IMG/VR virus record: IMGVR_UViG_2911215477_000001
Location: 38,486-102,485 of that record
Strand: one strand, 5' to 3'
Origin: a virus
Taxonomy: Duplodnaviria; Heunggongvirae; Uroviricota; Caudoviricetes
Length of the DNA: 64,000 nucleotides
The position numbers and the translations under genes are program-made. This document shows, in pieces, positions 3,285 to 63,328 of this stretch (positions within the stretch are counted from its first letter, which is position 1; each line of letters begins with the position of its first letter). The notes beneath the pieces are model-generated. The model saw nothing but the letters and a program-made list of their open reading frames with translations, was not told where the DNA came from and ran no database searches.

Positions 3285-3308
3285 TGTATAATATGTATGT
3301 CCATACAT
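3285..3308. promoter_or_regulatory. family-A motif TGTATAATATGTATGTCCATACAT (extended -10 plus palindrome) in a divergent intergenic region
   Basis: TGTATAAT followed by a GTATG..CATAC inverted repeat; between minus gene 3274 and plus gene 3345. Confidence 0.5.
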
Positions 3309-3344
3309 AGTCTAAGGCTTATAGGGAAGCGCCACAAGGCAAAC

Positions 3345-4850
3345 ATGAACGTCAAGATCGCAATGAATGCGGTCGTCGCCAAGCTGATCACGGATGATCG
3401 CGAACTGAAGCTGGCTGTATCCGACCTCCTCTCCTACAACGTCGCGGGCGCTGAGCACTCTCAGTCGTTCCAGACGGGCGGTTGGTCGGGTCGTTCCACT
3501 CTCTTCAGCTATGGCACTTCGACCTTCCCTGCTGGCCTGGTCAGCATGGTCTACACCTGGCTGAAGCAGAAGGGCTACAACCCGCAGCTCATCCGGAAGC
3601 CTGCCCCTGAACCTCTGGGCAAGCCCGAACCCATCGTCAACGAGTTCGGCAAGTCCGAGGCATACGACTACCAGTACGAGGCTGTCCGGCAGCTCATCCG
3701 TCACCGCGCCATCATCGCCCAGGTCGCAACGGGCGGTGGTAAGTCGAACATCGCCTCCATCGCGGTGGGCTGGATCAAGCGCCCGACCCTCTTCCTGACG
3801 ACGCGCAAGGTGCTCATGCACCAGATGAAGCGCACGTTCCAGAAGTCGCTGAAGTGGCGCGCTCGCAACGGTGAGCCCGAGATGGCCGGCGTGAAGGTCG
3901 GTGTCATGGGCGACAGCGAGTTCAACCCTCGCAAGCACATCAACGTCGGCATGGTGCAGACCATCATGGCCAAGCTGACGTCGGACGACCCGAAGGTGGT
4001 CGCCCAGATGAAGGCAATCCTCGCCATGTTCGAATTCGTGATCCTCGAAGAGGCCCACGAGTCCAGCGGTGGCGGCTACTACGAGATCATGGGCAACTGC
4101 ACCAACGCCCACTATCGCCTGGCGCTGACGGCTACCCCGTTCATGCGTGAGGACGAAGAAGCGAACATGCGCTTGATGGCGTGTTCGGGACCGATCGCCA
4201 TCCACATCACGGAGAAGATGCTGATCGACCGTGGCGTGCTTGCCCGGCCCGAGTTCAAGTTCATCACGCCTCCGCAGAGCCAGAAGGTCCGTCGCAACAG
4301 CGACTGGCAGCGCTCCTACAACTACGGGATCGTCAACAACGAGGCTCGCAACGGGATCATCATCGCGGAATCGACGCGAGCTGCCCGTAACAGCCTGTCC
4401 GTGATGATTCTGGTGCAGCGCCAGGAGCACGGCAACAACCTGGAAGCCCAGCTCAAGGAAGCCGGTGTCCGCGCCCGCTTCATCTTCGGTAAGTCCGAGC
4501 AGGACGAGCGCGACGAAGCCCTCGCCTCCCTGATGTCCGGTGAGCTTCAGGTGCTGATCGGCTCGACCATCCTCGACGTGGGTGTGGACGTGCCGGCAGT
4601 GGGCATGGTGATCCTCGCAGGCGGTGGCAAGGCGGAAGTCGCCCTTCGTCAGCGCATCGGTCGAGGACTGCGAAAGAAGCCTGCTGGCATGCCGAACGTC
4701 GCCTACATCATCGACTTCATGGATGCCATCAACAAACACCTGGTCGGTCATGCCGCCCAGCGTCGTCAGATCATCGAATCCACCCCTGGATTCGCGGAAA
4801 ACATCCTGCCTTCTGGCAGGGACTTCAGCTTTACCTACAAACTCAAGTGA
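3345..4850 (+). CDS. SF2 DEAD/DEAH-box DNA helicase
   Basis: Walker A ATGGGKS, DEAH-like LEEAHE, SAT-like LTATP, motif VI QRIGRGLR. The ORF-track start MSIH is the promoter palindrome read as coding, so the start was moved to MNVKIAM. Confidence 0.8.
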   Translation: MNVKIAMNAVVAKLITDDRELKLAVSDLLSYNVAGAEHSQSFQTGGWSGRSTLFSYGTSTFPAGLVSMVYTWLKQKGYNPQLIRKPAPEPLGKPEPIVNEFGKSEAYDYQYEAVRQLIRHRAIIAQVATGGGKSNIASIAVGWIKRPTLFLTTRKVLMHQMKRTFQKSLKWRARNGEPEMAGVKVGVMGDSEFNPRKHINVGMVQTIMAKLTSDDPKVVAQMKAILAMFEFVILEEAHESSGGGYYEIMGNCTNAHYRLALTATPFMREDEEANMRLMACSGPIAIHITEKMLIDRGVLARPEFKFITPPQSQKVRRNSDWQRSYNYGIVNNEARNGIIIAESTRAARNSLSVMILVQRQEHGNNLEAQLKEAGVRARFIFGKSEQDERDEALASLMSGELQVLIGSTILDVGVDVPAVGMVILAGGGKAEVALRQRIGRGLRKKPAGMPNVAYIIDFMDAINKHLVGHAAQRRQIIESTPGFAENILPSGRDFSFTYKLK

Positions 4851-4858
4851 GGAAGAAC

Positions 4859-5170
4859 ATGGAACAGAAGATCGAGACCCAGAGCGAGCGCAAGACCCTG
4901 ATGGTGGACGAGAAGACCTACGACAAGGTGTCGGCGGCTGCCAAGCGTGGCGGTTCCGGTGTCACCCGTGGTGTCGTGGTCGCCGCCCTGATCGACCTGG
5001 TGGGTCAGGACCAGCTGGATCGCAAGCTGGCCGAAATCGCTGCCGAGGCGAAGGCTGCCCGCGAGAAGAAGTCCGAGCAGCGCTCCAAGCTGTCGGAGCT
5101 GGCCGAGGTGCTGAGCCCGGCTGAGATCGAAGCCCTGCTGCGCCAGGCGCGTCAGCGTCAGGGCAGTTAA
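4859..5170 (+). CDS. hypothetical coiled/Ala-rich small protein
   Basis: RBS GAGGAAG before ATG; charged helical composition. Confidence 0.4.
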   Translation: MEQKIETQSERKTLMVDEKTYDKVSAAAKRGGSGVTRGVVVAALIDLVGQDQLDRKLAEIAAEAKAAREKKSEQRSKLSELAEVLSPAEIEALLRQARQRQGS

Positions 5171-5200
5171 CGTCTCTTGAACTTGGGGTTTTGCGCGTGC

Positions 5201-5224
5201 TGTATAATATGTATGCGCATACAT
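5201..5224. promoter_or_regulatory. family-A motif TGTATAATATGTATGCGCATACAT
   Basis: Near-identical to the 3285 copy; upstream of the lysin gene. Confidence 0.5.
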
Positions 5225-5261
5225 CACGCGCATCACCCCAAGCAACAAGAGGCAATATGTT

Positions 5262-5744
5262 TTGGTATCTACACTCTCTTTCCTTCTACGGACTGCCGTA
5301 GCGCTCACCTCCCTCAATCCCCAACCTACGCAGGCTGAAATGCACTGCATGTCCGTCACCGCATACGCTGAAGCTCGCGGTGAAGGTGTTGAAGGGATGG
5401 CCCTGGTGGTCGAATCCCTCCTCCAACGAAAGCAGATGACCGGGCAGGACGCCTGCTCCATCGCCAATCGCTACTACGACGGCTTCAAACTGATGAAGCG
5501 TCGCCCCTCTCCAGCCAAAACGGATACCGAGAACTGGATCCGTGCAAGCGCAGTCACCGCGCTCACCGTCAATGGCGCCATCAACCTGGGCAGCTGCTCG
5601 GGCGCAACCCACTTCTATCGCAAGCTTCCAGGTCGCCGGGCACCCTACTGGGCCAAGCCGGAGCATCGCGTGTGCAAGTTGGGCAACCACATCGCCTATC
5701 GCTACGTCATGCGCCCCGCTGTGCAAGGTCAGGTTGCAGGGTGA
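5262..5744 (+). CDS. SleB-type cell wall hydrolase (putative endolysin), TTG start
   Basis: AYAEARGEGVEGMALV matches the cell-wall-hydrolase (SleB) family motif; RBS AAGAGG; N-terminal hydrophobic segment. Confidence 0.6.
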   Translation: MVSTLSFLLRTAVALTSLNPQPTQAEMHCMSVTAYAEARGEGVEGMALVVESLLQRKQMTGQDACSIANRYYDGFKLMKRRPSPAKTDTENWIRASAVTALTVNGAINLGSCSGATHFYRKLPGRRAPYWAKPEHRVCKLGNHIAYRYVMRPAVQGQVAG

Positions 5745-5807
5745 ACGCATAGGGAGGGGTAACACCCCTTCCTAGACTGCGCTTACCACAACAACGGAGA
5801 CACCCAG

Positions 5808-6302
5808 ATGCCAAGGAAGGCTAAGGGCAACAAGAAAGACCAGGCACCACCCAAGCCTGTCAGCATCATCACGCTCCGGTCGAGCAGTCGCGGGTATCAC
5901 ACCGAGGCTTTGCTGTGGGCCAGCCAGGAAGACATGATCCGCGCCCTCAGTGTCTACAGTGCAACGCCGGCCAACGTCGGGGCTGCGTTCGTAGGCTTCT
6001 CGCGCAAGGAGAAGAAGGCCAAGTGGGGCAAGCTGCCCTCCAGCGCTCTCCTGGGCGAGTTCCACTTCTACGTGGGCGGCTGGGACATCGAAATCGTTTC
6101 GCACGAAGTCACCCATTCCGCCATCCATCGCATGCGTGTGCTCGACCCCGATGGTGAGGATGTCCTGGACGATGGCGTTGCTGCTGACGGGGAGCCCCTG
6201 GAAGAAGTGATCGCCTACGAGTCGGGCTTCTGGACGAGCGACATCCATCGCTGGCTGTCTACGACTGATCCAACTGAACGCCCGGTTGATCACGGGCGCT
6301 AA
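5808..6302 (+). CDS. hypothetical protein
   Basis: RBS GGAGA; basic N-terminus; no recognisable domain. Confidence 0.45.
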   Translation: MPRKAKGNKKDQAPPKPVSIITLRSSSRGYHTEALLWASQEDMIRALSVYSATPANVGAAFVGFSRKEKKAKWGKLPSSALLGEFHFYVGGWDIEIVSHEVTHSAIHRMRVLDPDGEDVLDDGVAADGEPLEEVIAYESGFWTSDIHRWLSTTDPTERPVDHGR

Positions 6303-6356
6303 CGTAAGTATCCACATACGTATAATGTAAAGACACCAACAAGGAGCAACACCGCA

Positions 6357-6740
6357 ATGGAACTGCAGCATTACATCGGCGTCGCGATCTTCCTGATCGT
6401 GCTCATCCTCATCTTCCGTCCGAAGGTGGGCAAGCACGAAGAGAAGATCACCGTCGCCACCTACGACATCGCTGTGCCCGACGTCCCGGCATACGCCGAC
6501 TTCGAACAGTTCGCCTACGGTCGCAAGGCCGGCGAGTCCGAGAACCTGGGCGAAGTGGCCAGCATGTTCATCAACCTGATCGAGGAAGATCTGCCGGCAC
6601 GTCCGTCGCAGGACAACCCGATCCGCGTCCTGATCCGTCGCCACGGTGAAGACGTGAGTCCCGTGGAGCTGTTCATTGCTCCCACCCCGATGGGCGTGGG
6701 CGGTGGCATCGGTTTCCATCCGGTGAAGCAGATCCGCTAA
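6357..6740 (+). CDS. membrane protein (N-terminal TM helix)
   Basis: RBS AAGGAG; IGVAIFLIVLILIF hydrophobic helix. Confidence 0.45.
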   Translation: MELQHYIGVAIFLIVLILIFRPKVGKHEEKITVATYDIAVPDVPAYADFEQFAYGRKAGESENLGEVASMFINLIEEDLPARPSQDNPIRVLIRRHGEDVSPVELFIAPTPMGVGGGIGFHPVKQIR

Positions 6741-6762
6741 GCGTCAACCAAGACGCTCTATA

Positions 6763-6795
6763 GAAAAGGCCGGGAAATTCCCCGGCCTTTTTTGT
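6763..6795. terminator. bidirectional rho-independent terminator
   Basis: GGCCGGG-aaattc-CCCGGCC hairpin flanked by an A-tract and a T-tract, between convergent genes. Confidence 0.75.
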
Positions 6796-6798
6796 GGC

Positions 6799-7161
6799 TC
6801 ACAGACAGGCTTCTGCTTCGCCTCGTCGCTTGGAGAAGGAGCTGATCGAGGGAAGCGTGCGCATCGCAACCTCCGTGCCCGTAGCCGACTTCGTGGCAGA
6901 GAGCGTGCTCAGCACCTGGCCCTGCGCACCCGTGCCGGGATTGGGCATCACCAGCGTCCGGTCGTCACCGTTGGGCACGATATGCGCGAACGTGTTCTCT
7001 TCCATCCACTTGGGCTGGACGCACTCAAGATAGGTCTGGGGCGACTTGTCCGTGTGCGCAGTGAACAACGGCTTGCGCTGCTGGATCTCTCCGTAGGACA
7101 CGCAACCCGTCAGCAGGCTACCGATCACAGCGAACGCCACCAATCCCATCTTCAGCTTCAT
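6799..7161 (-). CDS. lipoprotein (signal peptide with LTGC lipobox)
   Basis: MKLKMGLVAFAVIGSLLTGC; RBS AGGAG 5 nt before ATG. Confidence 0.55.
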   Translation of the reverse strand: MKLKMGLVAFAVIGSLLTGCVSYGEIQQRKPLFTAHTDKSPQTYLECVQPKWMEENTFAHIVPNGDDRTLVMPNPGTGAQGQVLSTLSATKSATGTEVAMRTLPSISSFSKRRGEAEACL

Positions 7162-7234
7162 CACCACTCCTGAGTTCTGTTCTATGTAGTTCTATTTTAT
7201 CGACGCGGTGCATTGCCACCGGGTCGTTCCGTCT

Positions 7235-7260
7235 GTGTATGTACGCGCATACGTATAATC
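7235..7260. promoter_or_regulatory. family-A motif GTGTATGTACGCGCATACGTATAATC
   Basis: Palindrome GTATGTACGCGCATAC plus TATAAT, upstream of the XRE regulator. Confidence 0.5.
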
Positions 7261-7287
7261 AATACATACGAACGCACAGAGAGAGCC

Positions 7288-7659
7288 ATGACGGAAGAAG
7301 CCCCTACCCCGCGAAACAGCAAAGCCGATCAGGAGGCAGTAGCTGACGCCCTGGTCGATCAGCTGCACAACACGATTCGCACCCAGATCGCTCGACGCAA
7401 GATCCGAGTAGCCGACATCGCAAGAAATTATGGCTGCTCACAGGTCTATATCTTCAACCTGTTGAAGAACAAGGAAAACGTATCCCTGCGCGTCTTGGGC
7501 AAGCTCGCCCTGGCGATGGGACTGCAGGTGACGCTCGCCTTTGCACCCATCGAAGGCTGGGAAGACCGCGACAACGACATCCCCGGCACGTCGGGCCGAG
7601 ACCTCGACTCCATCGACCTGGACAACGAGATCCAGGAACTGCTCAGGAACTTCGCATGA
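7288..7659 (+). CDS. XRE-family HTH transcriptional regulator
   Basis: ADIARNYGCSQVYIFNLLKNKENVSLRVLGKLALAMG helix-turn-helix; start re-called at MTEEAP. Confidence 0.6.
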   Translation: MTEEAPTPRNSKADQEAVADALVDQLHNTIRTQIARRKIRVADIARNYGCSQVYIFNLLKNKENVSLRVLGKLALAMGLQVTLAFAPIEGWEDRDNDIPGTSGRDLDSIDLDNEIQELLRNFA

Positions 7660-8237
7660 TCACGCACATCACCATCGTCGTCGCCGTAGATCGCAAGATG
7701 GGCATCGGGAAGGACAACGCCCTGCCCTGGCCCCGTCTGTCCAACGACATGAAGCGATTCCGGGCTATCACGCAGGAGATCGGCACGGTCGTCATGGGCA
7801 AGAACACTGCCCTGTCGCTGGGCAAGCCTCTGGACGGTCGCATCAACTACGTCCTCTCGCGCACGAACCCCGAGCTGCCCGAGGGCTTCATCGTGGTCGA
7901 GTCGGTGGACGAGCTGGACGAGCTGCACCAGGGTCCGATTGCAGTGATCGGCGGCGCTCAGGTCTATGACGAGTTCTTGCCCGTTGCGGACGAGCTGAAG
8001 ATCACCTGGGTCCACGAGGAGTTCGACTGCGACACACGCCTGCACCTAGCTCCCGAGTTCCTGGAGCGCTTCCACATGACGGAGCAGGATCACCGGCCAC
8101 CGAATCCGGGTTCGACGATCCAGCTGACCTTCGAGAGCTACCGCTACGCCACCTCCCCCAATGCTGAGGGCGAGTTCGTGGATATGGGACCGCTCTCCGG
8201 AGATCCGGTCGAGTTGCTCAAGTCCTGGGCAGCATAG
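7656..8237 (+). CDS. folA: dihydrofolate reductase
   Basis: VAVDRKMGIGKDNALPW..L, VMGKNT, IGGAQVY DHFR motifs; ATGA coupling; C-terminus longer than typical. Confidence 0.75.
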   Translation: MITHITIVVAVDRKMGIGKDNALPWPRLSNDMKRFRAITQEIGTVVMGKNTALSLGKPLDGRINYVLSRTNPELPEGFIVVESVDELDELHQGPIAVIGGAQVYDEFLPVADELKITWVHEEFDCDTRLHLAPEFLERFHMTEQDHRPPNPGSTIQLTFESYRYATSPNAEGEFVDMGPLSGDPVELLKSWAA

Positions 8238-8575: not shown

Positions 8576-8620
8576 GTGCGAAGGGTAAGCCTGCCCTGTC
8601 TCAATCTGCGAGCGTCACCT

Positions 8621-8755: not shown

Positions 8756-8810
8756 GAAATCGTCGCACTTCGGAGGCATCCGGCTGGCGATGTTGCGCGA
8801 TTTCTAGGAC

Positions 8811-8873: not shown

Positions 8874-9467
8874 TTACGCTTCCAGTGCGAAGCGCTCCCA
8901 TTCTGCGCGCTTGCTGTCAAGCAAAGCGAAAGACTTGTCAGACACGTCAGAGCTGATCCAGTTGAGCGCACGCAGCGCCTTGAGACTGCTAGAGGCTTGC
9001 GTGGGAGCGGTCGAGCTGCCAATGGGGAGTTTCTTCAAAAGCGCATTGGTCACGCCTTTGGTCTGCAATTCGCCAGCATCACGCAGAATGCTGATCGAAG
9101 CGTAAAGCGTCACATTGGGCTTCTCACGCTGCAACACTTCGCGCCAATGGCAACCCTTGCCGAGTGCAGTCACGACAGCTTGCAGCTTGTCCTGCGCGTA
9201 GATAGCGGCGCGCATGGCGTAGGAGTGGTCAACGTGCGCAGTGTAGGCGGCGAGAATCTTCTCATCCTTCAGCATGCCGACCCACTTATCAGCGCGACGC
9301 TTTGCGTTCTTTGCGCTTGTCACTTCGTCGCTGCTCTTATTCTTGTCTGCAATGATCGCAGCAAGCTTGTCAGACTGCGCAGCGTAGTCTGCGCGGAAGT
9401 CGATAGCGTCAGCGACAGTAGCAGCGGCGACGGTCTTAGCAGCGGTCTTAGCGGTCTTAGCCATTTT
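8874..9467 (-). CDS. hypothetical Ala/Lys-rich protein (start MAKTAKTAAK)
   Basis: The ORF-track start lies upstream of the family-A motif at 9524, so the start was moved to the first ATG after the motif and a 5'UTR hairpin. Confidence 0.45.
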   Translation of the reverse strand, partial: KMAKTAKTAAKTVAAATVADAIDFRADYAAQSDKLAAIIADKNKSSDEVTSAKNAKRRADKWVGMLKDEKILAAYTAHVDHSYAMRAAIYAQDKLQAVVTALGKGCHWREVLQREKPNVTLYASISILRDAGELQTKGVTNALLKKLPIGSSTAPTQASSSLKALRALNWISSDVSDKSFALLDSKRAEWERFALEA

Positions 9468-9523
9468 AGTATTCCCTTTGGTTTGGTTTGGGTTAGTGCG
9501 GTCTTGCCCGACCGCACAAACAT

Positions 9524-9540
9524 AGTATGCGCATACATAC
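9524..9540. promoter_or_regulatory. family-A motif AGTATGCGCATACATAC
   Basis: Palindrome GTATGCGCATAC; followed on the sense strand by GTGCGGTC..GACCGCAC, a 5'UTR hairpin without a U-tract. Confidence 0.45.
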
Positions 9541-9977
9541 TTCCCGTCAACAGATTTATTCAACTTTTTTTGATGGAAAAAACATGGTGTATGTATTGAC
9601 ATACTATGCAAGTGCATGTTAGTCGCGTGCGCGCTTTCATTCTCTCTCAGTGCATGCTTTTTGCTGCGCTGCATATAGACGTCTATACGTCTGTGTGATA
9701 GTCGCGCACTCCTACGTGCGATGCTCCTATGCGACGCGCACGAGCAATCCATGGTTTTCCCACCGAGCACCGGTTTAACCAACGTCTTTCCACCGGGAGC
9801 AGGAAAGCCCTGGTGGCCGCCAAACCTAGAGGGAAACCTATGGGACGCCAACTTACCTATAGGGGCACCCATAGCCGGGTAATCCATGGGTCAACCTGCC
9901 CTATGCCCAAAAGAAAGCCCAGAGGTGATCTGGGCTTGCTGACTACGGTGGACAGGGCAACTGCAGGAGATTGAGAT

Positions 9978-12954: not shown

Positions 12955-13000
12955 AGTGTATGTATGCGCTCACATATCGTCAAGCGCATACGTATGGGAT
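12955..13000. promoter_or_regulatory. family-A motif, extended palindrome GTATGTATGCGCTCACATATCGTCAAGCGCATACGTATGG
   Basis: Inverted repeat around the GCGC core. Confidence 0.5.
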
Positions 13001-13294: not shown

Positions 13295-13551
13295 AGCGTT
13301 TGCTCGCTGCGTTGTGTGTATGTGCATACATAGTAGCGCATCAGCAACAACCGACAATCGGCACGTCATAGGACTATTGGCGGCCCCTCCATGGGTTATC
13401 CATGGCTCACCCTAGGGCGGCTCCACCCAAAAAAGTGCCCCTGCGAGCGGGCAAGCTCCAGGGGCGTGGTCGAACAATAATCAGAGCCCAAAGGGAGGCC
13501 GAGGACGGGAGTCTTTGGCCCACCTACCCTGTTACTGCAGACAGGGTGATT

Positions 13552-14720: not shown

Positions 14721-15361
14721 TATCCCTATAGGGAACCAGGTCATCTGGAGCCGGGAGTATCTCTTTCTCTATGGAAGTGCCTATCTGATGCCGGAGCTAT
14801 CTGACTGACCTAGTACATGTGCTACGTAGGCCAGGATTAGGAAGACCGTGTTTGCTCCGGATGAGCGACAGCTCGGAAACTAGGCAATCTGAGAACTCAG
14901 GATATGACGCCCCCTACCCCGTGACGATGCACTGAGTAGGGACACATCCCGGCCTTCAGACTGCCTTGGGGAGTTTGACTCCCTCCCGGTGGTGATCCAC
15001 AGGGGCAACCTTCAACCTCATGCCATTGCGACAGTCACTGTTGTTCCTCGGTGCGCATGAGCCTGGGCAAGCCAGAACAGGTAACACCGTGTCACTCACC
15101 CGCCTCGCTGTCGCACCTATCGGTGACGCCCGAGTCCTGTCTGCGGGAAATCCTTCATCAGGGTCATTGCTACAAGAGCTGCCAGTGGCCGAACGTATGG
15201 GTGCCGATAAACCGCTAGCTGACCTGAGTATGTTAGCGCGTACATACCGTGGCGGGCAATGCTGGATAGAGCATGGGTCGGCCGGACTTGGGAGCGCCTG
15301 GACATGGAGGGGCCATGGGAAACCCTTGCAATATATGTGGCGCGGGCCGGCACCGTCATTT

Positions 15362-23623: not shown

Positions 23624-23681
23624 GTCTCTCTCCTCCGCAGGGAGCGCGCATGTATGCACATACGCACTCCCCAAGCCAGGT

Positions 23682-25504: not shown

Positions 25505-25554
25505 GTCGTATGTACGCGCTGCGATATGTCAGCGCGTACATACTATTAACGACG
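25505..25554. promoter_or_regulatory. family-A motif, long palindrome GTATGTACGCGCTG-cgatatgt-CAGCGCGTACATAC plus ACTATTAAC
   Basis: 13-bp perfect arms. Confidence 0.5.
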
Positions 25555-27703: not shown

Positions 27704-27807
27704 TCTCTTCTCTCTGGGTTGAAGCGCTAGCGCGCTTTCTCTATGTGCGCACAGTATGCGCATACATACTCGTAATTGCAACAGCTGGCACTAGGCACAA
27801 ACACTAT

Positions 27808-30289: not shown

Positions 30290-30466
30290 GGTTGAATCCT
30301 CTCTTCTCTCGTTTTGGGTGCGTCGCTCTCTGCGACAAGTGAATGATGTATGCAGATACATAGGGGCATCAACACTAAAACGCAGGCACGTTGTAGGGAC
30401 TGTGCCGACGCTCTGTAACGCTCTCTAAGCGCGTCGCGTCTCTTATGCGTGCGACGTGTCGCAATT

Positions 30467-32432: not shown

Positions 32433-32638
32433 GCGATTTCTACCTTTACTCGCTCGACGCTGAGGGTGCGGGGGTCGCGACCCTTAGCGATCATTTCGTC
32501 TCGTAGGTTGTTCACCCGGCTCTTCGTGCTCCACATGTCTTTCCCAGCGGCGGAATGCCACCGCTGGTGAAAGTCGTCCCAGAGCCGGAACTTGATGTCG
32601 ATGGCCCACTTGGAGCGCTTGACGGCGCTCTGGGTCAT
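32429..32638 (-). CDS. hypothetical small protein
   Basis: ATGA coupled. Confidence 0.35.
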
Positions 32639-34041: not shown

Positions 34042-34155
34042 TTCTCTTCTCTCCTGATATTGCAGGGGAGGTGGTCCCTCCCCTGCTGTCTTAGCGCTTA
34101 TGCTGCGCTTGTCTCGTCATTATACGTATGTTGATACATATTTTGACAGGGACGT

Positions 34156-37860: not shown

Positions 37861-37893
37861 GTCTTTCCGTTTCGTCGTTGAAAGGGCTAGGGA

Positions 37894-37909
37894 GTGTATG
37901 TGCATACAT
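37894..37909. promoter_or_regulatory. family-A motif GTGTATGTGCATACAT
   Basis: Upstream of nrdA. Confidence 0.5.
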
Positions 37910-37953
37910 CTCCCTGCCCTGACAGTGGTTGAGCCATTTCTGGCCTTACAGTG

Positions 37954-38552: not shown

Positions 38553-38595
38553 TGTTGCCTCTCCGTGGTGTGTATGTCGTTACATACACTCTATG

Positions 38596-39748: not shown

Positions 39749-39783
39749 TGAATTGCCTTGTGTATGTATGTGTTTACGTACTT

Positions 39784-44646: not shown

Positions 44647-44856
44647 CAGGTCATGTGGGGCTGCTCGGGGTCTCGCCCGTTCATGGAGGGAGCGAACCCG
44701 CCGCAGTTGCAGTAGTGCTTGAAGGACTTCAGCTGCTCAGCTTCTGTGCGGGTCACGTTCTTCTCTCCGTGCGTGCTTTGCTGCTACATGCTTATTATAT
44801 GTATGTTGATACTTATTTTGTCGTCCCCGCGAAAATAATTCGCAGGGACGTGTTGC

Positions 44857-49260: not shown

Positions 49261-49275
49261 TCTCTTCTCTCCTGC

Positions 49276-49310
49276 GCTATGTATGCGCTTACGTACTATT
49301 GTACTTATAG
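49276..49310. promoter_or_regulatory. family-A motif upstream of sbcD
   Basis: GCTATGTATGCGCTTACGTACTATTGTAC. Confidence 0.5.
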
Positions 49311-53259: not shown

Positions 53260-53391
53260 TTGGGTATTTCCTTGTTGTAGTGTTTGAGTGTTTGCAGTGG
53301 CACTCGACTACGCGGGTTTTCGCTTCGTCGTCATGCTCGTGCATCGTATGCGTTTTGTATGTATCCGCATACGTATTTTTCTAGGCAGAGC

Positions 53392-53883: not shown

Positions 53884-53951
53884 TTTGCTTCTCCATTCGT
53901 TCCATCATGTGAGCACATCGTTTGTATGTATGTGCTCACATATTATACCCG

Positions 53952-56900: not shown

Positions 56901-57224
56901 GTCGAAGAATCGACCGATCTTCTTGGCGCTCTCGCACTCGGACAGCGCAGCCAGGAGATCCACGAAGCCCTGAGCCTCTTTCACGTAGACCTTCGGGTAG
57001 AAGAACTTGCCCTCGTGATCCCAATGCTGGACTCGGAGGGTGCAGCCGGTGATCACTTCCACACCAGCTTTCTTGGACGACTTAGCTAGGTCGATGACTG
57101 CGGACACGGACATCGTGTCTGCGATGGCGACGTGGGTATAACCCACCTCCTTGGCCTGCTTGAGCAGATCGTCCGGCTGGAGAATCGACTCGCCTACTGA
57201 GAAGTGGGTGCGAGCGCCCCACAT
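53952..57224 (-). CDS. dnaE: DNA polymerase III alpha subunit (DnaE-type, PHP domain)
   Basis: N-terminal PHP domain, polymerase core and fingers region; start re-called at MWGARTHFS to avoid overlapping the upstream gene (uncertain). Confidence 0.8.
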   Translation of the reverse strand: MWGARTHFSVGESILQPDDLLKQAKEVGYTHVAIADTMSVSAVIDLAKSSKKAGVEVITGCTLRVQHWDHEGKFFYPKVYVKEAQGFVDLLAALSECESAKKIGRFFDWFAFRRLVQTGNFVVTTGDALSAFSSVMSDDDVTAFIERMRDDVSASQLVLELVAVASPVFARQNARVLEHTIVGSDGVIINGMAMYATEEDAKARDVVNAITRNLRYSHGATPKQIAGLHIRDFDTLMEGVMGSLDLATEMGLAWGTVLPIDPTPMLSYRWTKADISIPKMAEDEFVELVRQCKKYWSDRIDKPVLGYKPDPSLLPVYQARLKTELMVLKELGFCGYFLLVADICRWAKDNGIAVGPGRGSVGGSLIAYVIGITEVDPIRFDLLFERFINPSRLDLPDADLDFMSERRHEIITYLRETYGKAAVASISNYNTLGAPSALREVGKALDIPDRDYACSSYIPKEHGQSMSLAEALDKMPELQTYQKKHPQAFDIAQRVEGTMRSMGTHAAGVIVAGRPIKGMAVVEDRGEDTVVNWDKRVVEEQGLVKIDVLGLSNLDILRRAIDKIFHDYGERINLLDLHLDDEKTMAAFGRGETVGVFQFESGGMRKLLKDMAKYEPLTFEELAAATALFRPGPLDSGLLDDYVNVRQGIVMEHYEHPAMEPALKATKGVIVYQEQVMQLTRDLAGFTLAEADNVRKAIGKKDKDKMAEQGDKFVRGCVDVAGMGEDQAKELWDKIVLFAGYAFNKSHSVAYSIISVWTMYLKVHYPHAFYAASLEIHKEDKLAGLVADAAKRGIEILPPDVNESTYGFKRVGDALVAPISRVKGLSEISEKAVLDGRELAGGKFIDRAHFDKHVPGKCNKRQREFLEEVGAFASITPGALPARHPDRVKAQLERLPGLIAASVRVDRPIVCDGPVLDILKRTLLEMRDALGAPPLPKLGSKPKIMVILEAPSSKDEKKGKLFESDSALPVKEAIKAAGLTTNDLYITSFLKVPKKDKTITNEEISASRPWLDKEIEILKPGLIIALGSNVSRTLCPDERGSIMDLAGKVVFDRKLDASIILGINPGMVAFDPAKQETLDAIFIRAAELIS

Positions 57225-57232
57225 GGTCTTAT

Positions 57233-57826
57233 TCACGGGGACACCATATTCACGCCCACGAACTCCAGGGCGTCCTTTGTCAGTTTGTAGTTGGAGGTCA
57301 GCGATGCGACCGACCATTCCGCGCCGTCAGCGGTTCGGAGCAGCTCGTTCACACGACTGATGTGTTCCTTACGTGGGACCAGGTGCGATCCCAGGGTCTC
57401 GCGCAGCTCGTGGTAAGCCTGCACAAACATCGCCGGGAACTTCACCTCACCCTTGAACGGGTTCGCACCTGAAACGATGCTGCCCAGGTCAAAGCCCTTC
57501 TTGTTCCAGCGATCAACAGCTTCCGCAGCCTTCTTCGCAAGGGTCACGGTCTCGCCCGTGCTCGTGAGCACGATGGTCGGGGTGATCTTGGCTTCAGTCT
57601 TGGCGGGCTTCTTGGTCGCGAGCTTGCGAGTCGTGCGGACATGAGCAATGGCCATATCGAGCGCGGTCTTGGGCTTCGCTTCACCTTCAGCACGGAGAGC
57701 TGCGATTTCTTTACGAACTTCCTCCACCTTTTCCGAACATGCTTTGAAGAACTGGCAGTTGGAGCAGTAAGCGTCAGCGGCGTCGTGGAGGACTACGCTT
57801 CCGAAGCAATCAAGTTGGTCAGACAT
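57233..57826 (-). CDS. hypothetical protein with N-terminal Cys cluster
   Basis: CSNCQFFKAC. Confidence 0.4.
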   Translation of the reverse strand: MSDQLDCFGSVVLHDAADAYCSNCQFFKACSEKVEEVRKEIAALRAEGEAKPKTALDMAIAHVRTTRKLATKKPAKTEAKITPTIVLTSTGETVTLAKKAAEAVDRWNKKGFDLGSIVSGANPFKGEVKFPAMFVQAYHELRETLGSHLVPRKEHISRVNELLRTADGAEWSVASLTSNYKLTKDALEFVGVNMVSP

Positions 57827-57832
57827 TTACAC

Positions 57833-58516
57833 CTAGCCCAGAAACAGTTGTGCCTTGCGCTCGATTTCGTGGCGGCTACGACGCGCCACGCTCGGGTGAA
57901 TTTCCATGAGGGAAGCAACGAAACTCAGGGTCAGCTCCTTTCTGGCTCGGGTGGCATAGCCGGCGTTACGACGCAGCTGTGCCCCACGTTGGTATTTGTC
58001 GAACTGGTTCAGGACCACTTCGGGCGGGTTGATCACGCACTCCAGGAGCTGACGGGCGTCGGCACTCAATGCCTTCACCAACTTGTCCGTGGAATCCGCA
58101 TAGGTCACAAGCTCTTCCGGCGTCAGCTCGTCCGAAGCGATCACTGCCCAGAGGCTTTCGCCTTCTTCGTCGTCAGCACGCTGATCCGGATGGAGCACGG
58201 AGCCATGAAGGACGGCCTGCTCGTCTCGCGTGACCAGGCGCTGCAAGTTCTTCCAGCTGGCCTGAATGAAGAAGTTGATGAAGGACGCACCCTTCTCGTC
58301 GTCGTAGGACTGGTCGCAACGGACGAAGGTCAGAGCCAGCTCTTGCTCGATGTCGTCCAGGTCGTAGGGGGCACCAGTGGCCATCACACGAACCATGAAC
58401 TTGTTGGCGAGCTTGTTGATGAGCGGGTAATACTGCTCGACCGTCCTCTTCTCGGAGTGGTGGGTCTTGCGGACCCACACCTCCGACGTTGCTTGGACGT
58501 TTGTCTGCTCGGTCAT
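57833..58516 (-). CDS. sigma-70 family RNA polymerase sigma factor
   Basis: Region 2-like DLDDIEQELALTFVRCDQSYDDEKGASFINFFIQASWKNLQR; start MTEQT with RBS GAGGT. Confidence 0.6.
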   Translation of the reverse strand: MTEQTNVQATSEVWVRKTHHSEKRTVEQYYPLINKLANKFMVRVMATGAPYDLDDIEQELALTFVRCDQSYDDEKGASFINFFIQASWKNLQRLVTRDEQAVLHGSVLHPDQRADDEEGESLWAVIASDELTPEELVTYADSTDKLVKALSADARQLLECVINPPEVVLNQFDKYQRGAQLRRNAGYATRARKELTLSFVASLMEIHPSVARRSRHEIERKAQLFLG

Positions 58517-58526
58517 GGTTTCGACC

Positions 58527-59660
58527 TCAGCCGAACATGCGCTGCATGACGCTGGTCGCGAACGCTGCCGACTGGGGCGGCAGACGATTGATGTAGGCAC
58601 AGGTGATGCCGTACTTGTAGTCGCTGCGAGCCAGGCCCAAGCGGGCTGCAAACTGGAGCGAACGCGGGGACAGCGGGTTCGTGACCTCGCGGCGGTCGAA
58701 CGAGTTGCGCATCATCTTGGCGAACTCGACCAGCTTCTGTGCGACTTCCTTCGCCACGGTGGTCTTGCCCATGAGAAGAGCGATTTCCTGCTTCTCTTCC
58801 ATGTAGTCCTTCTTCATCACGATGCCAAAGCGCTCGTAGTTCGCCGCGTTCTGGATCTGGGTGCCGGCGTACAGACCCGACTCGTCACCCGAGCCGTTCG
58901 TGTTTCCCGTCGCAACGAAGCGGAAGTCGGGGTGGGGTTTGACCACCTTGTTCGCTGCCTTGATACGCAGGGGCTTGCCTTCCAGCACAGCCTGGTAGAT
59001 CGAGCAGACCATCGGGGAGGCGAAGTCGTACTCGTCGGCGTTGTAGATCAGACCGTGTTCCATCGCGAACGGAAGCGGGCCGTCTTCCCAGACCATCTCG
59101 CCGTTCTTGACGCGCCACTGGCCTTCGATGTCGGCTTCTTCGGTGTTCGCGGTGTGCTGGACGCGGAGGTAGCCACGACCCGTGCGGGCTGCGCACTCTT
59201 CGAACAGGGAGGACTTGCCCACGCCCGAGTGACCCCACATGAGGATCGGGATGTTCATCTCCAAGGCCATCATCACCGTCTTGGTGTCGGCAATGTCGAA
59301 GACGTACTTGGAGTCGGCGTCGGGGACGTGAGCCTCGATCTCCGGACGATGACACAGCGAAACCTTGATGGCTTCGCCCAGAGCGTTCATGGCAGCCTTC
59401 GCGGTCGCGGGGAAGCCGAACAGCTCATGGAGAGCGCCGGTCTTCTTCTCGGGGCCAGCAGTGGTGGGAGCGACGGTCACGGACTTCGCAGCCGCGCCCT
59501 TCTTCATGTCGATCTGAGCCTGGGCTTCCGGGGAGAGCGTCGGGGCCAAGGGATACTTCTCCTTGTACGCCTCCAGGGTCATCTCCGGATGGTCTTTCGA
59601 CAGGTGAACTGCGATTGCGTGGGTGGTAGCACCGCACTCCTGGCAAGTGATAGCAGCCAT
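58527..59660 (-). CDS. CobS-like / MoxR-type AAA+ ATPase
   Basis: Walker A GHSGVGKSSL, AAA_5-like core. Confidence 0.65.
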   Translation of the reverse strand: MAAITCQECGATTHAIAVHLSKDHPEMTLEAYKEKYPLAPTLSPEAQAQIDMKKGAAAKSVTVAPTTAGPEKKTGALHELFGFPATAKAAMNALGEAIKVSLCHRPEIEAHVPDADSKYVFDIADTKTVMMALEMNIPILMWGHSGVGKSSLFEECAARTGRGYLRVQHTANTEEADIEGQWRVKNGEMVWEDGPLPFAMEHGLIYNADEYDFASPMVCSIYQAVLEGKPLRIKAANKVVKPHPDFRFVATGNTNGSGDESGLYAGTQIQNAANYERFGIVMKKDYMEEKQEIALLMGKTTVAKEVAQKLVEFAKMMRNSFDRREVTNPLSPRSLQFAARLGLARSDYKYGITCAYINRLPPQSAAFATSVMQRMFG

Positions 59661-59761
59661 TGGGTCTCTCCTCTCTTCTCTCTGAATTGTTCGCGCTGCG
59701 CGCTTTATGTATGTACGTACATACTCTAAGCGTCGCAGCGCGGGGTTTCAATACTGGTTCG

Positions 59762-61870: not shown

Positions 61871-61933
61871 TCTCTCTTCTCTCCGTTATGCGTCGCGCTC
61901 GCATTGAATATGTATGCGCGTACATACGAGTAT

Positions 61934-61968
61934 AACGAGAGACAAGCAGGGGCATCTAGTCCCCTGCT
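61934..61968 (-). terminator. rho-independent terminator
   Basis: GCAGGGG-catctagt-CCCCTGC hairpin followed by TTGTCTCTCGTT. Confidence 0.55.
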
Positions 61969-61990
61969 CACATTGCCTACCGATTGCCTG

Positions 61991-62299
61991 TTACAGGACT
62001 TTCGTAGCGAGAGGGATCAGCAACGAGAACGCAGCGGTCAGCGCGTGCGCTCCCAGCAAGCGGACGTGAGGCGTCAACGCATGGGTTGCAAAGAGAACTA
62101 CTGCCGAGGTGCTCTGGACGATATACATCAGTCCGACCTTCGGGTGCTTCGCGACGGTGAGCATCAGCCCATCCATGTCGCGGCTTTGAATCTGGGTGCT
62201 TTCGGAGAGAACTTCCTCCAGGGCGTCCGTAGACAATTCCCACGGCTGCATCTGCTGGTTGGGCAAAGCGTCCATCGTGTCCCACTTCAACTGCTTCAT
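61991..62299 (-). CDS. hypothetical protein
   Basis: RBS GAAGGAAG. Confidence 0.4.
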   Translation of the reverse strand: MKQLKWDTMDALPNQQMQPWELSTDALEEVLSESTQIQSRDMDGLMLTVAKHPKVGLMYIVQSTSAVVLFATHALTPHVRLLGAHALTAAFSLLIPLATKVL

Positions 62300-62454
62300 A
62301 TTTTTCTTCCTTCAGGGGTCAACCAAGTTTCTTGTTATGCGTTGCGTAAGAAATTGTAGGAAGCTTGTCGTAAGGAAGGTATTGGCATTTCATGCAGTAG
62401 GAAAAGGACTACAAGCTCCCATACGGTGACGTAGTTGGTCACTTTTCAGCCGAG

Positions 62455-63177
62455 TCACATGGTCGCGAGTTCGATCAACCCAAGAGCGACGGACACGGCA
62501 CATAGGGCGGCTTTGTTTCGCACCCCTAATCGGTCACTGGCCATGTTGAGGTGCGCATTGACGGTGCGCATGGAAATCCCAAGGCGTTCAGCAACTTCCT
62601 CGGCAGTGAGTCCTTGGGCGGATAACTCAACGACCGCAACCTGCTGAGGCGTCAAAATTTCGACGCTCGATTTCACTCCGTCATCCTCTCGACTGAGGGC
62701 GTAGTGCATGTGCCCAAAAAAGGCATACATGTCGTTCTCCCTCTGCATCGCGTGCCAGAGAGGAATGTCAGCTTTCGTGGCAAGACACATGATCATCCAG
62801 TTCCGAGCGGTGTGTCGGTCCTGGAGGATGACGCCGGAATGGATCCCGTTCTGTCTCCACAGATTTATCGCGCACGGTTCTTCGGTGAGGACTTGCAGCG
62901 CTGTGTTGTAGACAGCCTGCCCGTCATCACGCCATGCGGTTACAGGAGCAGTGCTCCAGAGAATGTCGTAAGCATCTTTGCCTCGATTCTCTTTCCATAT
63001 CTGGATGCGCTGTTCCCAGGCACCCGTAGGCATGTTGTCGAACGTATAGATATGACCGGAAGCGCGGCGGCCTATCACCGCCAGAAACTCATAACCGAGG
63101 TTCGTTGCGATCCGATAAGCGTGTTCCCTAAGCCGATTTCCATCCTCGGAAGCCAGTCCGGAGATGTCCCTAGGCAT
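62455..63177 (-). CDS. LuxR-family transcriptional regulator (autoinducer-binding N-domain plus GerE/LuxR HTH)
   Basis: C-terminal LTPQQVAVVELSAQGLTAEEVAERLGISMRTVNAHL; the N-terminal 170 aa have Trp/Tyr/Asp spacing like an autoinducer-binding domain. Confidence 0.6.
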   Translation of the reverse strand: MPRDISGLASEDGNRLREHAYRIATNLGYEFLAVIGRRASGHIYTFDNMPTGAWEQRIQIWKENRGKDAYDILWSTAPVTAWRDDGQAVYNTALQVLTEEPCAINLWRQNGIHSGVILQDRHTARNWMIMCLATKADIPLWHAMQRENDMYAFFGHMHYALSREDDGVKSSVEILTPQQVAVVELSAQGLTAEEVAERLGISMRTVNAHLNMASDRLGVRNKAALCAVSVALGLIELATM

Positions 63178-63303
63178 GGGGCAGCCCTCCGTAAGAACCG
63201 GAAATTGTGAGGCTTTTCTCTTGTATAAGTCTTTTGGGACGGGGCGAAAAGTCTTGCGATTTACTCGTTGTTAAGCGAACTAACTATTGGTAACGTAGTC
63301 CCC

Positions 63304-63328
63304 GCATATAATCAGTACGTACATACAT
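63304..63328. promoter_or_regulatory. family-A motif CATATAATCAGTACGTACATACATC
   Basis: TATAAT plus palindrome GTACGTAC. Confidence 0.45.

Follow-up and report, generated by a model that had tools for sequence, protein, structure and literature searches.

Phage P1 offers a close described parallel to the locus analysed here, a prophage of the SSU5 type that resides in the chromosome of Dyella telluris. Both are temperate and appear to place many separate lytic promoters under a single repressor whose operators are spread over the genome (22 in P1; PMC8546580). P1 is moreover a phage-plasmid, as are most SSU5-type relatives, and its repressor C1 is autoregulated via operators at its own promoter, for which a putative counterpart exists here. 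The P1 operators are asymmetric 17-mers (ATTGCTCTAATAAATTT; PMC8546580), whereas the site here is a symmetric 20-bp palindrome of higher density (~25 copies in 64 kb) and the candidate protein is an XRE-type HTH protein of 136 aa. No Coi-, Lxc- or Ant-type partners, as found in P1, were identified here. Mycobacteriophage L5 and the cluster A phages likewise carry tens of repressor sites, scattered over the genome in the small gaps between genes (PMC9283540, PMC6550527), with site sequence and repressor co-diverging into immunity groups. Their stoperators, however, are asymmetric, bound by monomers (PMC9283540) and halt elongation away from promoters, whereas the present sites are palindromes that lie over core promoter elements in fixed registers.

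The lambdoid CI/Cro and 434 Cro systems share with the present one operators that are palindromes, with one helical turn between the half-sites, placed over the -10 or -35 element and bound by small HTH dimers (here predicted). But lambdoid operators are two or three clustered sites in one immunity region, the rest being controlled by antitermination cascades, while here nearly each operon has its own operator-bearing promoter. Lehnherr et al. reportedly described in 1992 the Lpa-dependent late promoters of P1, in which a -10 hexamer is combined with an inverted repeat near -22 that replaces the -35 box. A part of the copies here (register A, below) share this geometry, although Lpa activates late genes only, the genes here include those of replication and recombination, and about half of the copies have their centre at +1 to +5. 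T4-type PeSL cassettes are also repeated intergenic modules, consisting of a promoter plus an inverted repeat before many small phage genes; their stem-loops are structural and variable in sequence, as opposed to the element here, which folds weakly and is conserved in its sequence but not in its pairing.

The palindrome and its position in the promoters

The window, i.e. the whole stretch of 64,000 nucleotides that was analysed, contains a repeated unit of 20 bp with the consensus (A/G)TATGTATGC·GCATACATA(T/C), the Dyella version being ATATGTATGC·GCATACATAT. The GT/AC cores are invariant with a spacing of 11 bp (G-6, T-5, A+5 and C+6 are identical in all copies). An iterated symmetric PWM gave about 25 strong copies of 17-30 bits, compared with a mean maximum of 10 bits and a highest value of 15 in shuffled sequence. 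All but one of these 25 lie between genes, and 19 of the 31 intergenic gaps of 40-1500 bp contain a copy, which lies 23-60 nt 5′ of the start codon and often directly before the Shine-Dalgarno sequence. Along the direction of transcription the left arm is less strictly conserved than the right (position -3 vs +3, p = 0.003), so that something beyond a symmetric dimer also constrains the site. At each of the 23 coordinates listed in the earlier note we found a copy, and its consensus GTATG(C/T)GC(R)TACATAC has 44 matches at ≤3 mismatches against 0.53 expected, a number reached in none of 100 shuffles. The formula TGTATG-N3-7-CATACA proved imprecise and matches exactly only once, because the arms ATGTATG/CATACAT are mostly 2 bp apart. 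Additional to that earlier list are the copy at 15228-15247, the weak ones at 25508-25527 and 9589-9608 and the intragenic half-site at 32837; one further copy lies just past the right end of the window (L005 5606).

The palindrome overlaps the predicted core promoter, as located by consensus matching, in two fixed registers. In register B it lies just 3′ of a -10-like hexamer with its centre at about +1 to +5, and in register A it occupies the -35/-10 spacer with its centre at about -14 to -20. The copies and the candidate repressor gene are as follows.

3291..3310, + strand: palindrome ATATGTATGTCCATACATAG, 27.7 bits, its first bases overlapped by the end of TGTATAAT; in register B relative to the UvsW-like helicase gene; given TATTAT at +8 on the opposite strand, may also serve divergent gene 2615-3274
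5207..5226, + strand: palindrome, 27.0 bits, register B (TGTATAAT at -14..-9)
6304..6323, + strand: palindrome, 24.5 bits, register A, perfect TATAAT at +8..+13
7237..7256, + strand: palindrome in divergent gap, 27.3 bits; register A for 7288-7659 (+), GATTAT at -14 for 6799-7167 (-)
9521..9540, - strand: palindrome, 21.3 bits, 5′ of gene starting at 9464 (-), occupying the whole spacer of TTGACG-N17-TACTAT
9589..9608, unstranded: weak palindrome, 12.4 bits, inside the null range, membership uncertain
12958..12977, - strand: palindrome, 26.4 bits, in spacer of predicted TTGACG-N17-TACACT
13314..13333, - strand: palindrome, 27.5 bits, register B, TACTAT at -12
15228..15247, unstranded: palindrome, 24.0 bits
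23648..23667, - strand: palindrome, 20.4 bits, no recognisable -10 close by; forms the tip of a longer GGGAG...CTCCC inverted repeat
25508..25543, - strand: composite of two overlapping palindromes, GTATGTACGCGCTG-N8-CAGCGCGTACATAC (25524-25543, 24.4 bits; 25508-25527, 12.7 bits)
27750..27769, - strand: palindrome, 21.3 bits, predicted TTGCAA-N17-CATACT
30344..30363, - strand: palindrome, 22.1 bits
32837..32856, unstranded: intragenic half-site within 32635-33540, 18.0 bits, probably non-functional
34122..34141, - strand: palindrome, 23.8 bits, register A, perfect TATAAT at +8..+13, 3′ of the RNR small-subunit gene
37892..37911, - strand: palindrome, 22.0 bits, 5′ of the RNR large-subunit gene
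38568..38587, - strand: palindrome, 21.0 bits, TAGAGT at -16
39762..39781, - strand: palindrome, 23.3 bits
44006..44025, - strand: palindrome, 25.0 bits, GATAAT at -17, SD immediately following, 5′ of SbcC/Rad50-like gene
44797..44816, - strand: palindrome, 24.3 bits, register A, perfect TATAAT at +8..+13
49277..49296, - strand: palindrome, 27.1 bits, behind TAGACG-16-TACAAT (promoter scan), 5′ of Mre11-like phosphoesterase gene
53357..53376, - strand: palindrome, 27.3 bits, 5′ of gp32-like SSB gene, conserved in L008
53924..53943, - strand: palindrome, 26.0 bits, perfect TATAAT at -14, identical in L008
59705..59724, - strand: palindrome, 26.8 bits, behind TTGAAA-17-TAGAGT (promoter scan), 5′ of CobS-like gene; L008 version differs at the centre only
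61908..61927, - strand: highest-scoring palindrome, 30.2 bits, TATACT at -17, 5′ of CobT-like gene, identical in L008
63311..63330, + strand: weaker palindrome, 17.5 bits, degenerate outer left arm, TATAAT at -14, adjoining the next gene on its 5′ side; putative autoregulatory operator
63351..63761, + strand: candidate cognate repressor gene, 136-aa Cro/CI (XRE)-type HTH protein

The -10-like hexamer begins at -14 in 11 sites (4 of them a perfect TATAAT) and at -12 or -17 in others, while in 4 sites a perfect TATAAT is present at +8..+13; about 8 copies have no convincing -10. Relative to the predicted transcription start, the palindrome centre lies at +0.5..+5.5 (12 sites) or at -13.5..-19.5 (10 sites). 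The predicted start falls within the palindrome in the major register, whereas in the other one the palindrome is 5′ of the -10. The coupling to TATAAT proposed earlier is real except that there are two registers and not a single one, and about half of the copies show the proposed arrangement of an extended -10 with a repeat behind it at +1 to +20, some ten others lying between -35 and -10. In the region from 44 to 64 kb the scan found only two full sigma70 promoters, both at motif sites.

A candidate repressor and its co-occurrence with the palindrome

We consider it rather probable that the palindrome is a dispersed repressor operator, the cognate protein most likely being the 63351-63761 product. 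The operator would be built into the core promoters of the prophage, and nearly all transcription units in its region of early, replication and recombination genes would have one. A dimer of the Cro/CI-type HTH protein would contact the half-sites TATGTATG and CATACATA, whose GT and AC cores, 11 bp apart, would be separated by one helical turn. As the operator would overlap the -10 hexamer, covering either about -8..+12 or about -30..-11, the bound dimer would exclude RNA polymerase, and one protein would thereby silence some 25 dispersed promoters in the lysogen. The weaker copy on the repressor's own promoter would provide negative autoregulation. Both the binding by this protein in particular and the direction of regulation, i.e. 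repression, are what we infer.

The 63351-63761 gene is the only divergently transcribed one at that prophage end and is an ortholog of CYRAN_45 of Cyrano, a phage of E. coli, which is listed as master repressor and is transcribed ~10-fold over the silent prophage background in lysogens (PMC9928086). It belongs to a conserved family of Cro/CI-type HTH genes (130-136 aa) that co-occurs with the palindrome. The family profile has its best match among solved structures in the 'immunity repressor' 8bny (E 5e-4), followed by a weak match to 434 Cro (E 0.33), and the members match PHROG repressor/regulator families. The Dyella protein itself gives a weak HTH-family match (PHROG E 0.002), no match in the Pfam search and a single-sequence structure model too unreliable for use (pLDDT 45). 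Among 50,697 phage records homologs of the gene were found only in SSU5-type temperate phages, and they also occur in 865 plasmids, nearly always adjoining an integrase gene. Analogous weak copies lie 5′ of the repressor genes in Cyrano and pJN2-26. It may be noted that the earlier note had named three HTH candidates, of which this one is supported. No phage record contains a homolog of the 7288-7659 protein, which hence cannot be a family-wide reader, and the LuxR-type gene was not found in L009 or L010.

The temperate relatives (metagenomic contigs, RHEph10, Cyrano/SSU5 and Klebsiella pJN2-26) each have their own version of the palindrome on a common scaffold, namely ATAAGTCAGC·GCTGACTTAT in L010/L006, GTCAGTCAAT·ATTGACTGAC in RHEph10 and ATAAGTAAGT·ACTTACTTAT in SSU5/Cyrano/pJN2-26, and the changes between lineages are mirrored in both arms. 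In the close relative L008 the arms are unchanged at all 6 shared sites, the centre of one site being changed from CGTA to TCAA. Neither palindrome nor HTH gene was found in the lytic-looking ANB28, JGB6 and nickie. SSU5 carries the palindrome without the repressor gene, which is explained by its being a deletion derivative of plasmids that are 98-99% identical to it. The recognition helix differs between L009 and L010 despite their similar palindromes, so the covariation of helix and arms is only qualitative. Of the three roles offered by the earlier note, the protein-type conservation (invariant cores, arms that change independently), the promoter overlap and the co-occurrence with the HTH gene favour the first, in which the palindrome is the operator of a single phage regulator.

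Other readings of the palindrome

An activator site, or a promoter-specificity element that stands in for the -35 box as in the Lpa-dependent late promoters of P1 or in MerR-type promoters with the regulator in the spacer, is an unlikely reading. Full sigma70 promoters are not enriched (2 found vs 4.2 expected in 20 kb), which implies that many motif promoters are without a good -35, and the register A copies at 6304, 7237, 34122 and 44797, as well as most enterobacterial ones, are centred near -20 with a good -10. Also the 7288-7659 protein has a weak match to the PHROG 'late transcriptional activator' (E 7e-4), and the copies 5′ of late genes in Cyrano (lysis, tail-fibre) fit an activator; copies before late genes in relatives are accommodated, not predicted, by a pure lysogeny-repressor model. 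Yet about half of the copies in the window have their centre at about +1 to +5, a position from which a bound protein blocks polymerase instead of recruiting it, several belong to promoters with a good -35 box of their own (TTGACG, TTGAAA), and the presence of the motif follows a gene expressed in the lysogenic state (PMC9928086).

There is a slighter chance that the palindrome is bound by a host regulator, e.g. an SOS- or stress-linked repressor that couples the phage promoters to host physiology. The arms follow the host group, in that the elements of E. coli, Salmonella and Klebsiella share one palindrome while those of Rhizobium and Dyella have others, and since phage and host lineages are confounded, lineage-specific arms would fit a host-encoded factor as well. 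The Dyella TGTAT-N6-ATACA bears a superficial likeness to the LexA box of enterobacteria, ciprofloxacin induces Cyrano (PMC9928086) and no cleavage domain is obvious in the candidate repressor. But the CTG/CAG that defines the LexA box is missing (position -8 is A in 22 of the 25 copies), the enterobacterial version of the palindrome is no CTGT-N8-ACAG box either, and the motif is absent from ANB28 (Stenotrophomonas) and JGB6 (Xanthomonas) despite their related hosts. A search of 5.6 kb of flanking host DNA, a very small sample, gave no copy.

Action in RNA, as a 5′-terminal or intercistronic stem-loop that stabilises transcripts or serves as an RNase III-type processing site, is very improbable. 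The repeat does lie upstream of start codons, often abutting the Shine-Dalgarno sequence, and the copy at 38568 folds at -9.8 kcal/mol (z = -3.3). It is the only stable one, as 9 of the 10 folded copies reach only -1.5 to -5.4 kcal/mol (z +0.7 to -2.1). Within-copy pairing of the arms is 75.0% against 75.2% with arms swapped between copies, i.e. there is no covariation, and 78 uncompensated arm substitutions (66 one-sided and 12 double non-complementary) stand against 4 complementary ones, so that what is conserved is sequence and not pairing; this contradicts the 5′-terminal stem-loop of the earlier note. Also, the register A copies lie 5′ of their -10 hexamer and would not be part of that promoter's transcript, and a search of Rfam with the element gave no match. 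Recognition by the phage sigma-like protein 57833-58516, another suggestion of that note, is hardly credible in spite of a Sigma70_r2 match that is weak and falls short of the Pfam cut-off (E 6e-5), PHROG sigma matches and a positional equivalent in RHEph10 annotated as sigma factor, because gene and motif dissociate both ways (gene present in ANB28 and JGB6 without the motif, absent from the motif-bearing Cyrano and SSU5 loci), the motif is found at either of two positions with respect to the -10 hexamer, and twofold symmetry is no property of sigma-recognised elements.

The logic of one repressor acting at many operators is familiar, and for the large SSU5/pHCM2/pMT1 group of phage-plasmids it appears to be undescribed. 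If the repressor operator reading is true, one small phage repressor would keep the entire lytic programme silent.

The prophage and its promoter palindrome

The window has a G+C of ~59% and carries a replication, recombination and nucleotide-metabolism module comprising DnaE fused to a UDG domain, CobT-like and CobS-like proteins, ribonucleotide reductase, a RecA-like protein, Mre11/Rad50-like proteins, a UvsW-like helicase, DHFR and a gp32-like SSB. By exact-protein look-up, the window belongs to the chromosome of Dyella telluris (CP060412.1). Directly past the window's right end are host ftsH/ftsJ and a tRNA cluster with tRNA-Lys as its last member, and therefore the window is one end of an integrated prophage. 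The host cluster abutting the prophage reads Arg, Pro, Arg, His, Lys, and a tRNA search of the window found none. Just past the same end, the stretch from the host tRNA-Lys (5215-5290 of L005, the locus that reaches beyond the window) to the first prophage gene holds GGGCTACAG / CTGTAGCCC eight times, in both orientations, within ~115 bp (L005 5358-5471). These repeats are kept in the metagenomic relative L008 and are likely to be recombinase arm-type or att-associated sites. Genes are read leftward in 131-3274, rightward in 3297-8237, and leftward again between 16.4 and 62.3 kb.

Window genes referred to in the text
7288-7659, HTH_26 protein
8874-9464 (-), alanine/lysine-rich protein with N-terminus MAKTAKTAAKTVAAA, downstream of the window's best canonical promoter; G+C is lower and gene calls are unclear in the surrounding 8.2-16.4 kb
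53952-57317 (-), DNA polymerase III alpha subunit with a C-terminal uracil-DNA-glycosylase-superfamily domain (residues 971-1072), a fusion common to the metagenomic relatives
57833-58516 (-), sigma-like ORF conserved in the CobS-DnaE module of lytic and temperate relatives; its Sigma70_r2 match is below the Pfam cut-off, and a word-indexed search of 5.8 billion proteins gave a single 30%-identical homolog, so divergent is it
58527-59660 (-), CobS-like AAA+ ATPase whose N-terminal 40 residues weakly match the ROS/MucR zinc finger (E 2e-4, below the Pfam cut-off)
62455-63177, LuxR-type gene
63351-63761 (+), 136-aa Cro/CI (XRE)-type HTH gene

An earlier note on this DNA had listed 23 positions for an inverted repeat, and the repeat was present at all of them; it is real, but the formula given for it, TGTATG-N3-7-CATACA, lacks precision, with a single exact match. 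With up to 3 mismatches allowed, the 16-mer of that note matches 44 times, where 0.53 matches are expected. Iteration of a strand-symmetric PWM ends at 25 strong sites in the window (17-30 bits), as compared to ~10 bits on average and 15 at most for shuffled sequence. All but one of these (24/25) are intergenic, and 19 of the 31 gaps of 40-1500 bp are occupied. The repeat unit is a 20-bp palindrome, (A/G)TATGTATGC to the left of the centre and GCATACATA(T/C) to the right. Counted from the centre, G-6, T-5, A+5 and C+6 do not vary in 24-25 copies and the half-site cores are 11 bp apart, which gives an inverted repeat with conserved cores about one helical turn apart, as in sites of the Cro/CI type. 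A mild transcription-linked asymmetry is also seen, whereby -3 is T in only 12-13 copies, as against A in 22-23 at the mirror position +3 (p = 0.003), and this fits an overlap with start-site constraints.

Further symmetric elements accompany some copies. At 25508-25543 two copies overlap and together make an inverted repeat of larger size, its arms 14 nt long (GTATGTACGCGCTG-N8-CAGCGCGTACATAC). Copy 53924 is followed at a distance of 5 nt by a small palindrome ATGTGCTCACAT (53896-53907), GC-rich inverted repeats CGCTGCG/CGCAGCG flank copies 59705-59724 and 12958-12977, and GGGAG...CTCCC arms lengthen copies 23648 (23640-23675) and 37892 (37885-37918).

Copies were oriented by the downstream gene before hexamer offsets were read, and the predicted start was placed at the usual 7 nt from the hexamer; all promoter positions are predictions. 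In the oriented copies, -10-like hexamers cluster strongly at fixed offsets from the palindrome centre, in two registers. In register A, where the palindrome lies in the -35/-10 spacer, a perfect TATAAT occupies +8..+13 in four copies (6304, 7237, 34122 and 44797). In register B, where it lies just downstream of the hexamer, the hexamer starts at -14 in 11 copies (4 with perfect TATAAT) and at -12 or -17 in others. The hexamer shares 2-3 bases with the outer edge of the palindrome in both registers. Relative to the predicted start, the centre lies at +0.5 to +5.5 in 12 copies and at -13.5 to -19.5 in 10, and about 8 copies have no convincing -10. A generic promoter scan of 44-64 kb found two full -35/-10 promoters, fewer than expected by chance, both at motif sites; elsewhere, copy 9521 exactly occupies the spacer of TTGACG-N17-TACTAT, the promoter of 8874-9464.

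The distance from palindrome centre to start codon is 23-60 nt, often with the Shine-Dalgarno right behind the right arm. Immediately 5′ of many start codons is a purine-only tract, GGAGAGAAGAGA, that resembles an extended ribosome-binding site (e.g. 34043-34054, 49261-49272, 61873-61884, 59665-59683 and 27704-27715, all on the - strand); it has 20 matches at <=2 mismatches against 8.8 expected, a count reached in 0 of 100 shuffles. Several mechanical ORF calls, such as 3297-4850, open at an ATG within the palindrome, and for this helicase gene the ATG near 3345, which follows a purine-rich tract, is probably the true start. If it is a promoter operator, the motif could therefore aid the annotation of promoters and true start codons in such genomes.

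A DNA site kept across relatives

The earlier note had also offered a 5′-terminal RNA stem-loop, and this is contradicted by the pattern of change in the arms. Deviations counted over 24 copies and 10 symmetric position pairs are one-sided in 66 cases, double and non-complementary in 12 and complementary in only 4, and these 4 all lie at the degenerate centre or edge of the palindrome. Taken as an 8-bp stem, 75.0% of cells pair, against 75.2% when right arms are swapped among copies (300 of 500 shuffles equal or exceed the observed value), and no covariation measure on the stem rises above shuffles. The folds of 9 out of 10 copies are weak (-1.5 to -5.4 kcal/mol, z +0.7 to -2.1), and a search of Rfam returned no match. 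The uncompensated arm changes, shuffle-level pairing and weak folds contradict a reading as RNA hairpin, 5′ stem-loop or RNase III site. Conservation lies in the half-site sequences themselves and not in their complementarity, which is the signature of a dimeric DNA-binding protein.

The DnaE of the window has 37-50% identity to that of Stenotrophomonas phage ANB28, Xanthomonas phage JGB6, Pseudomonas phage nickie, Rhizobium phage RHEph10 and enterobacterial SSU5-type phages/phage-plasmids. A DNA-level search of the phage collection found no close relative, a search of viral and genome contigs with the CobS-like protein gave no match, and the exact 16-mer ATGTATGCGCATACAT had only three unrelated single matches in viral contigs. 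Loci of relatives were instead obtained by protein search followed by contig look-up; de novo counting of exact palindromes was too insensitive on such short loci. L008, a metagenomic relative with 91% identity in the CobT-like protein, keeps the palindrome at each of the six positions that it shares with the window, with 0 arm changes and the centre of one site altered from CGTA to TCAA. This footprint is weakly informative as the two are too similar, and the raw figures of 96% versus 87% are inflated by end gaps. More distant syntenic relatives lack the Dyella sequence and have their own palindrome in the same gaps, in the same two registers beside TATAAT. For L009, another metagenomic relative, the motif rests on direct reading of the gaps, because the iterated PWM drifted into GC-rich coding sequence.

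Consensus arms of the palindrome by lineage
Dyella prophage: left arm ATATGTATGC, right arm GCATACATAT
L010 / L006 (metagenomic relatives): left arm ATAAGTCAGC, right arm GCTGACTTAT; L010-type palindrome AAGTCAGCGCTGACTT
RHEph10: left arm GTCAGTCAAT, right arm ATTGACTGAC
SSU5 / Cyrano / pJN2-26: left arm ATAAGTAAGT, right arm ACTTACTTAT

The positions fixed across the family (T-9, G-6, T-5 and their mirrors) are those invariant within the window, and lineage-specific positions vary on both arms together. No motif enrichment was found in ANB28, JGB6 and nickie, which use ordinary promoters and terminators. ANB28 (L004) has a single palindrome at 31323-31360, ATATGTGAGCGC-N10-GCGCTCACAT, with an arm like the variant left arm of copies 12958 and 53924, an isolated case in a genome otherwise devoid of the motif.

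The candidate repressor and its apparent loss in SSU5

The earlier note had named three HTH proteins as possible readers of the site. The gene at 63351-63761 is the supported candidate; the other two were rejected as not conserved, the HTH_26 protein 7288-7659 having no homolog in any phage record and the LuxR-type gene 62455-63177 being absent at that position in L009 and L010. The candidate is the sole divergently transcribed gene at this prophage end, and its positional orthologs in L009 and L010 (34-39% identity) keep the synteny. Further homologs are RHEph10 gp041, Cyrano CYRAN_45 (annotated ‘putative repressor’ and adjoining the integrase) and a protein of Klebsiella pJN2-26. In a set of 50,697 phage records, SSU5-type temperate phages alone have homologs, and in PLSDB the gene is found in 865 plasmid records, nearly always next to an integrase. 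It is co-distributed with the palindrome and absent from relatives without the motif.

The best match of the family profile is 8bny, a solved phage ‘immunity repressor’ (E 5e-4), followed by LexA-type and 434 Cro HTH domains, and family members match HTH_3/HTH_19 and PHROG repressor/regulator families. A word-indexed homolog search with the 136-aa protein returned only itself, and its single-sequence structure model was unusable (pLDDT 45). The predicted recognition helices vary from lineage to lineage; those of the two enterobacterial proteins, whose palindrome is the same, are near-identical.

Predicted recognition helices
Dyella: FKQANAFV
L009: FRSANMIS
L010: FPRANIIS
RHEph10: WTQSNMVT
Cyrano: YKNANNLS; pJN2-26: YKNPNILS

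Just 5′ of the candidate repressor gene, the window (63311), Cyrano and pJN2-26 each have a weaker copy whose outer arm is degenerate, and this suggests autoregulation. In transcriptomes of Cyrano lysogens, CYRAN_45 is expressed ~10-fold above the silent prophage background and is listed by the authors as master repressor; Cyrano is induced 39-fold by ciprofloxacin (PMC9928086).

SSU5 is an exception in that it has strong palindromes and no repressor homolog was found in it. Its alignment to Cyrano is collinear, at 75-80% nucleotide identity, and passes over ~3.9 kb of Cyrano that holds the integrase, the repressor and a small divergent gene. The junction lies at about 7963-8026 of SSU5 (L013) when set against Cyrano (L016) and the plasmid pECL-90-1 (L017). 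None of 822 plasmid relatives spans this junction contiguously, including Enterobacter plasmids that are 98-99% identical up to the breakpoint; one of these, pECL-90-1, carries an integrase, a divergent regulator and a small gene exactly there. The block of integrase and repressor that SSU5 lacks is found in all 822. SSU5 thus looks like a recent repressor-deletion derivative of a phage-plasmid with inherited operators, as judged from these alignments, and such a deletion would explain the motif without a repressor. We infer that it also underlies the plaque-forming behaviour of SSU5.

Regulatory readings and known systems

The operator for one phage regulator proposed in the earlier note is supported by half-site conservation, placement, conservation in the family and co-occurrence with the HTH gene, and we hold with moderate confidence that the palindrome is a dispersed operator of the 136-aa HTH repressor. 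A dimer of this protein would sit on each palindrome and cover the -10 hexamer plus the start site or the spacer, so that RNA polymerase would be excluded. In the lysogen, ~25 dispersed lytic replication/recombination promoters would in this way be kept off, and the repressor would restrain its own synthesis via the weaker operator.

That the palindrome is an activator site or stands in for a -35 box, as with P1 Lpa or MerR, seems unlikely to us: the geometry of register A and the scarcity of -35 boxes fit it, whereas register B and the copies already having good -35 boxes do not. The P1 Lpa late promoter, with a -10, an inverted repeat near -22 and no -35, has its geometry matched in register A only (centre -19.5) and not in the ~12 register B copies; no Lpa homolog was found beyond a weak PHROG match of one non-conserved protein. 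Register A is the dominant form in the enterobacterial phage-plasmids, where it precedes the lysis and tail genes. One HTH protein could act as a universal switch that represses in register B and remodels or activates the promoter in register A, as regulators of the MerR or P1 Lpa type do, and lysogenic silencing and lytic order would both be set by one site and one protein, a scheme that we regard as decidedly improbable. Binding by a host factor is more doubtful again. Phage lineage and host lineage are confounded, which would allow it, but relatives on related hosts lack the motif, and the comparison with the enterobacterial LexA box CTGT-N8-ACAG failed, since TGT/ACA are present but -8 is A in 22/25 copies and +8 is T in 19/25. 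A recognition element for the sigma-like protein 57833-58516, as had also been proposed, is contradicted, since that ORF has homologs in motif-free ANB28/JGB6 and none in the motif-bearing Cyrano/SSU5 loci, i.e. the distributions dissociate both ways, and the motif occurs in two registers rather than at one fixed position.

Read as a repressor operator, the palindrome has its closest functional counterpart in the C1 regulon of P1, whose 22 operators are dispersed (PMC8546580); the L5-type stoperators come next (PMC9283540). In both, the sites are asymmetric and the proteins unrelated. As with C1, some 20 or more sites lie at separate promoters, here as 25 strong copies in 64 kb and 19 gaps; the C1 operator is an asymmetric 17-bp ATTGCTCTAATAAATTT (PMC8546580), unlike the symmetric 20-bp palindrome of unrelated sequence found here. 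Mycobacteriophage stoperators are asymmetric, monomer-bound, transcription-oriented and located off promoters, whereas the present site is palindromic and overlaps -10 hexamers. In structure, the site and the candidate protein resemble the CI/Cro operators of lambdoid phages, where an operator on nearly every promoter is not seen. Our literature search found no description of this operator or of the repressor’s targets in SSU5/pHCM2/pMT1-type elements, nor any account of how SSU5-type elements silence their lytic genes.

pHCM2 of Salmonella Typhi and pMT1 of Yersinia pestis are SSU5-type elements, as are hundreds of phage-plasmids of Klebsiella, E. coli and Enterobacter. If the repressor reading holds, these would have a testable immunity system with a 20-bp operator consensus per lineage and a named repressor gene, lineages with different arms would be predicted to be heteroimmune, and the repressor-less state of SSU5 would be explained as a deletion. 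A symmetric-operator, Cro/CI-type case would also join the few whole-genome repressor regulons (P1 C1, L5 gp71). Such an operator system is unsurprising in principle, yet useful and open to direct test as an entry point to the immunity system of a large phage-plasmid group of clinical relevance.
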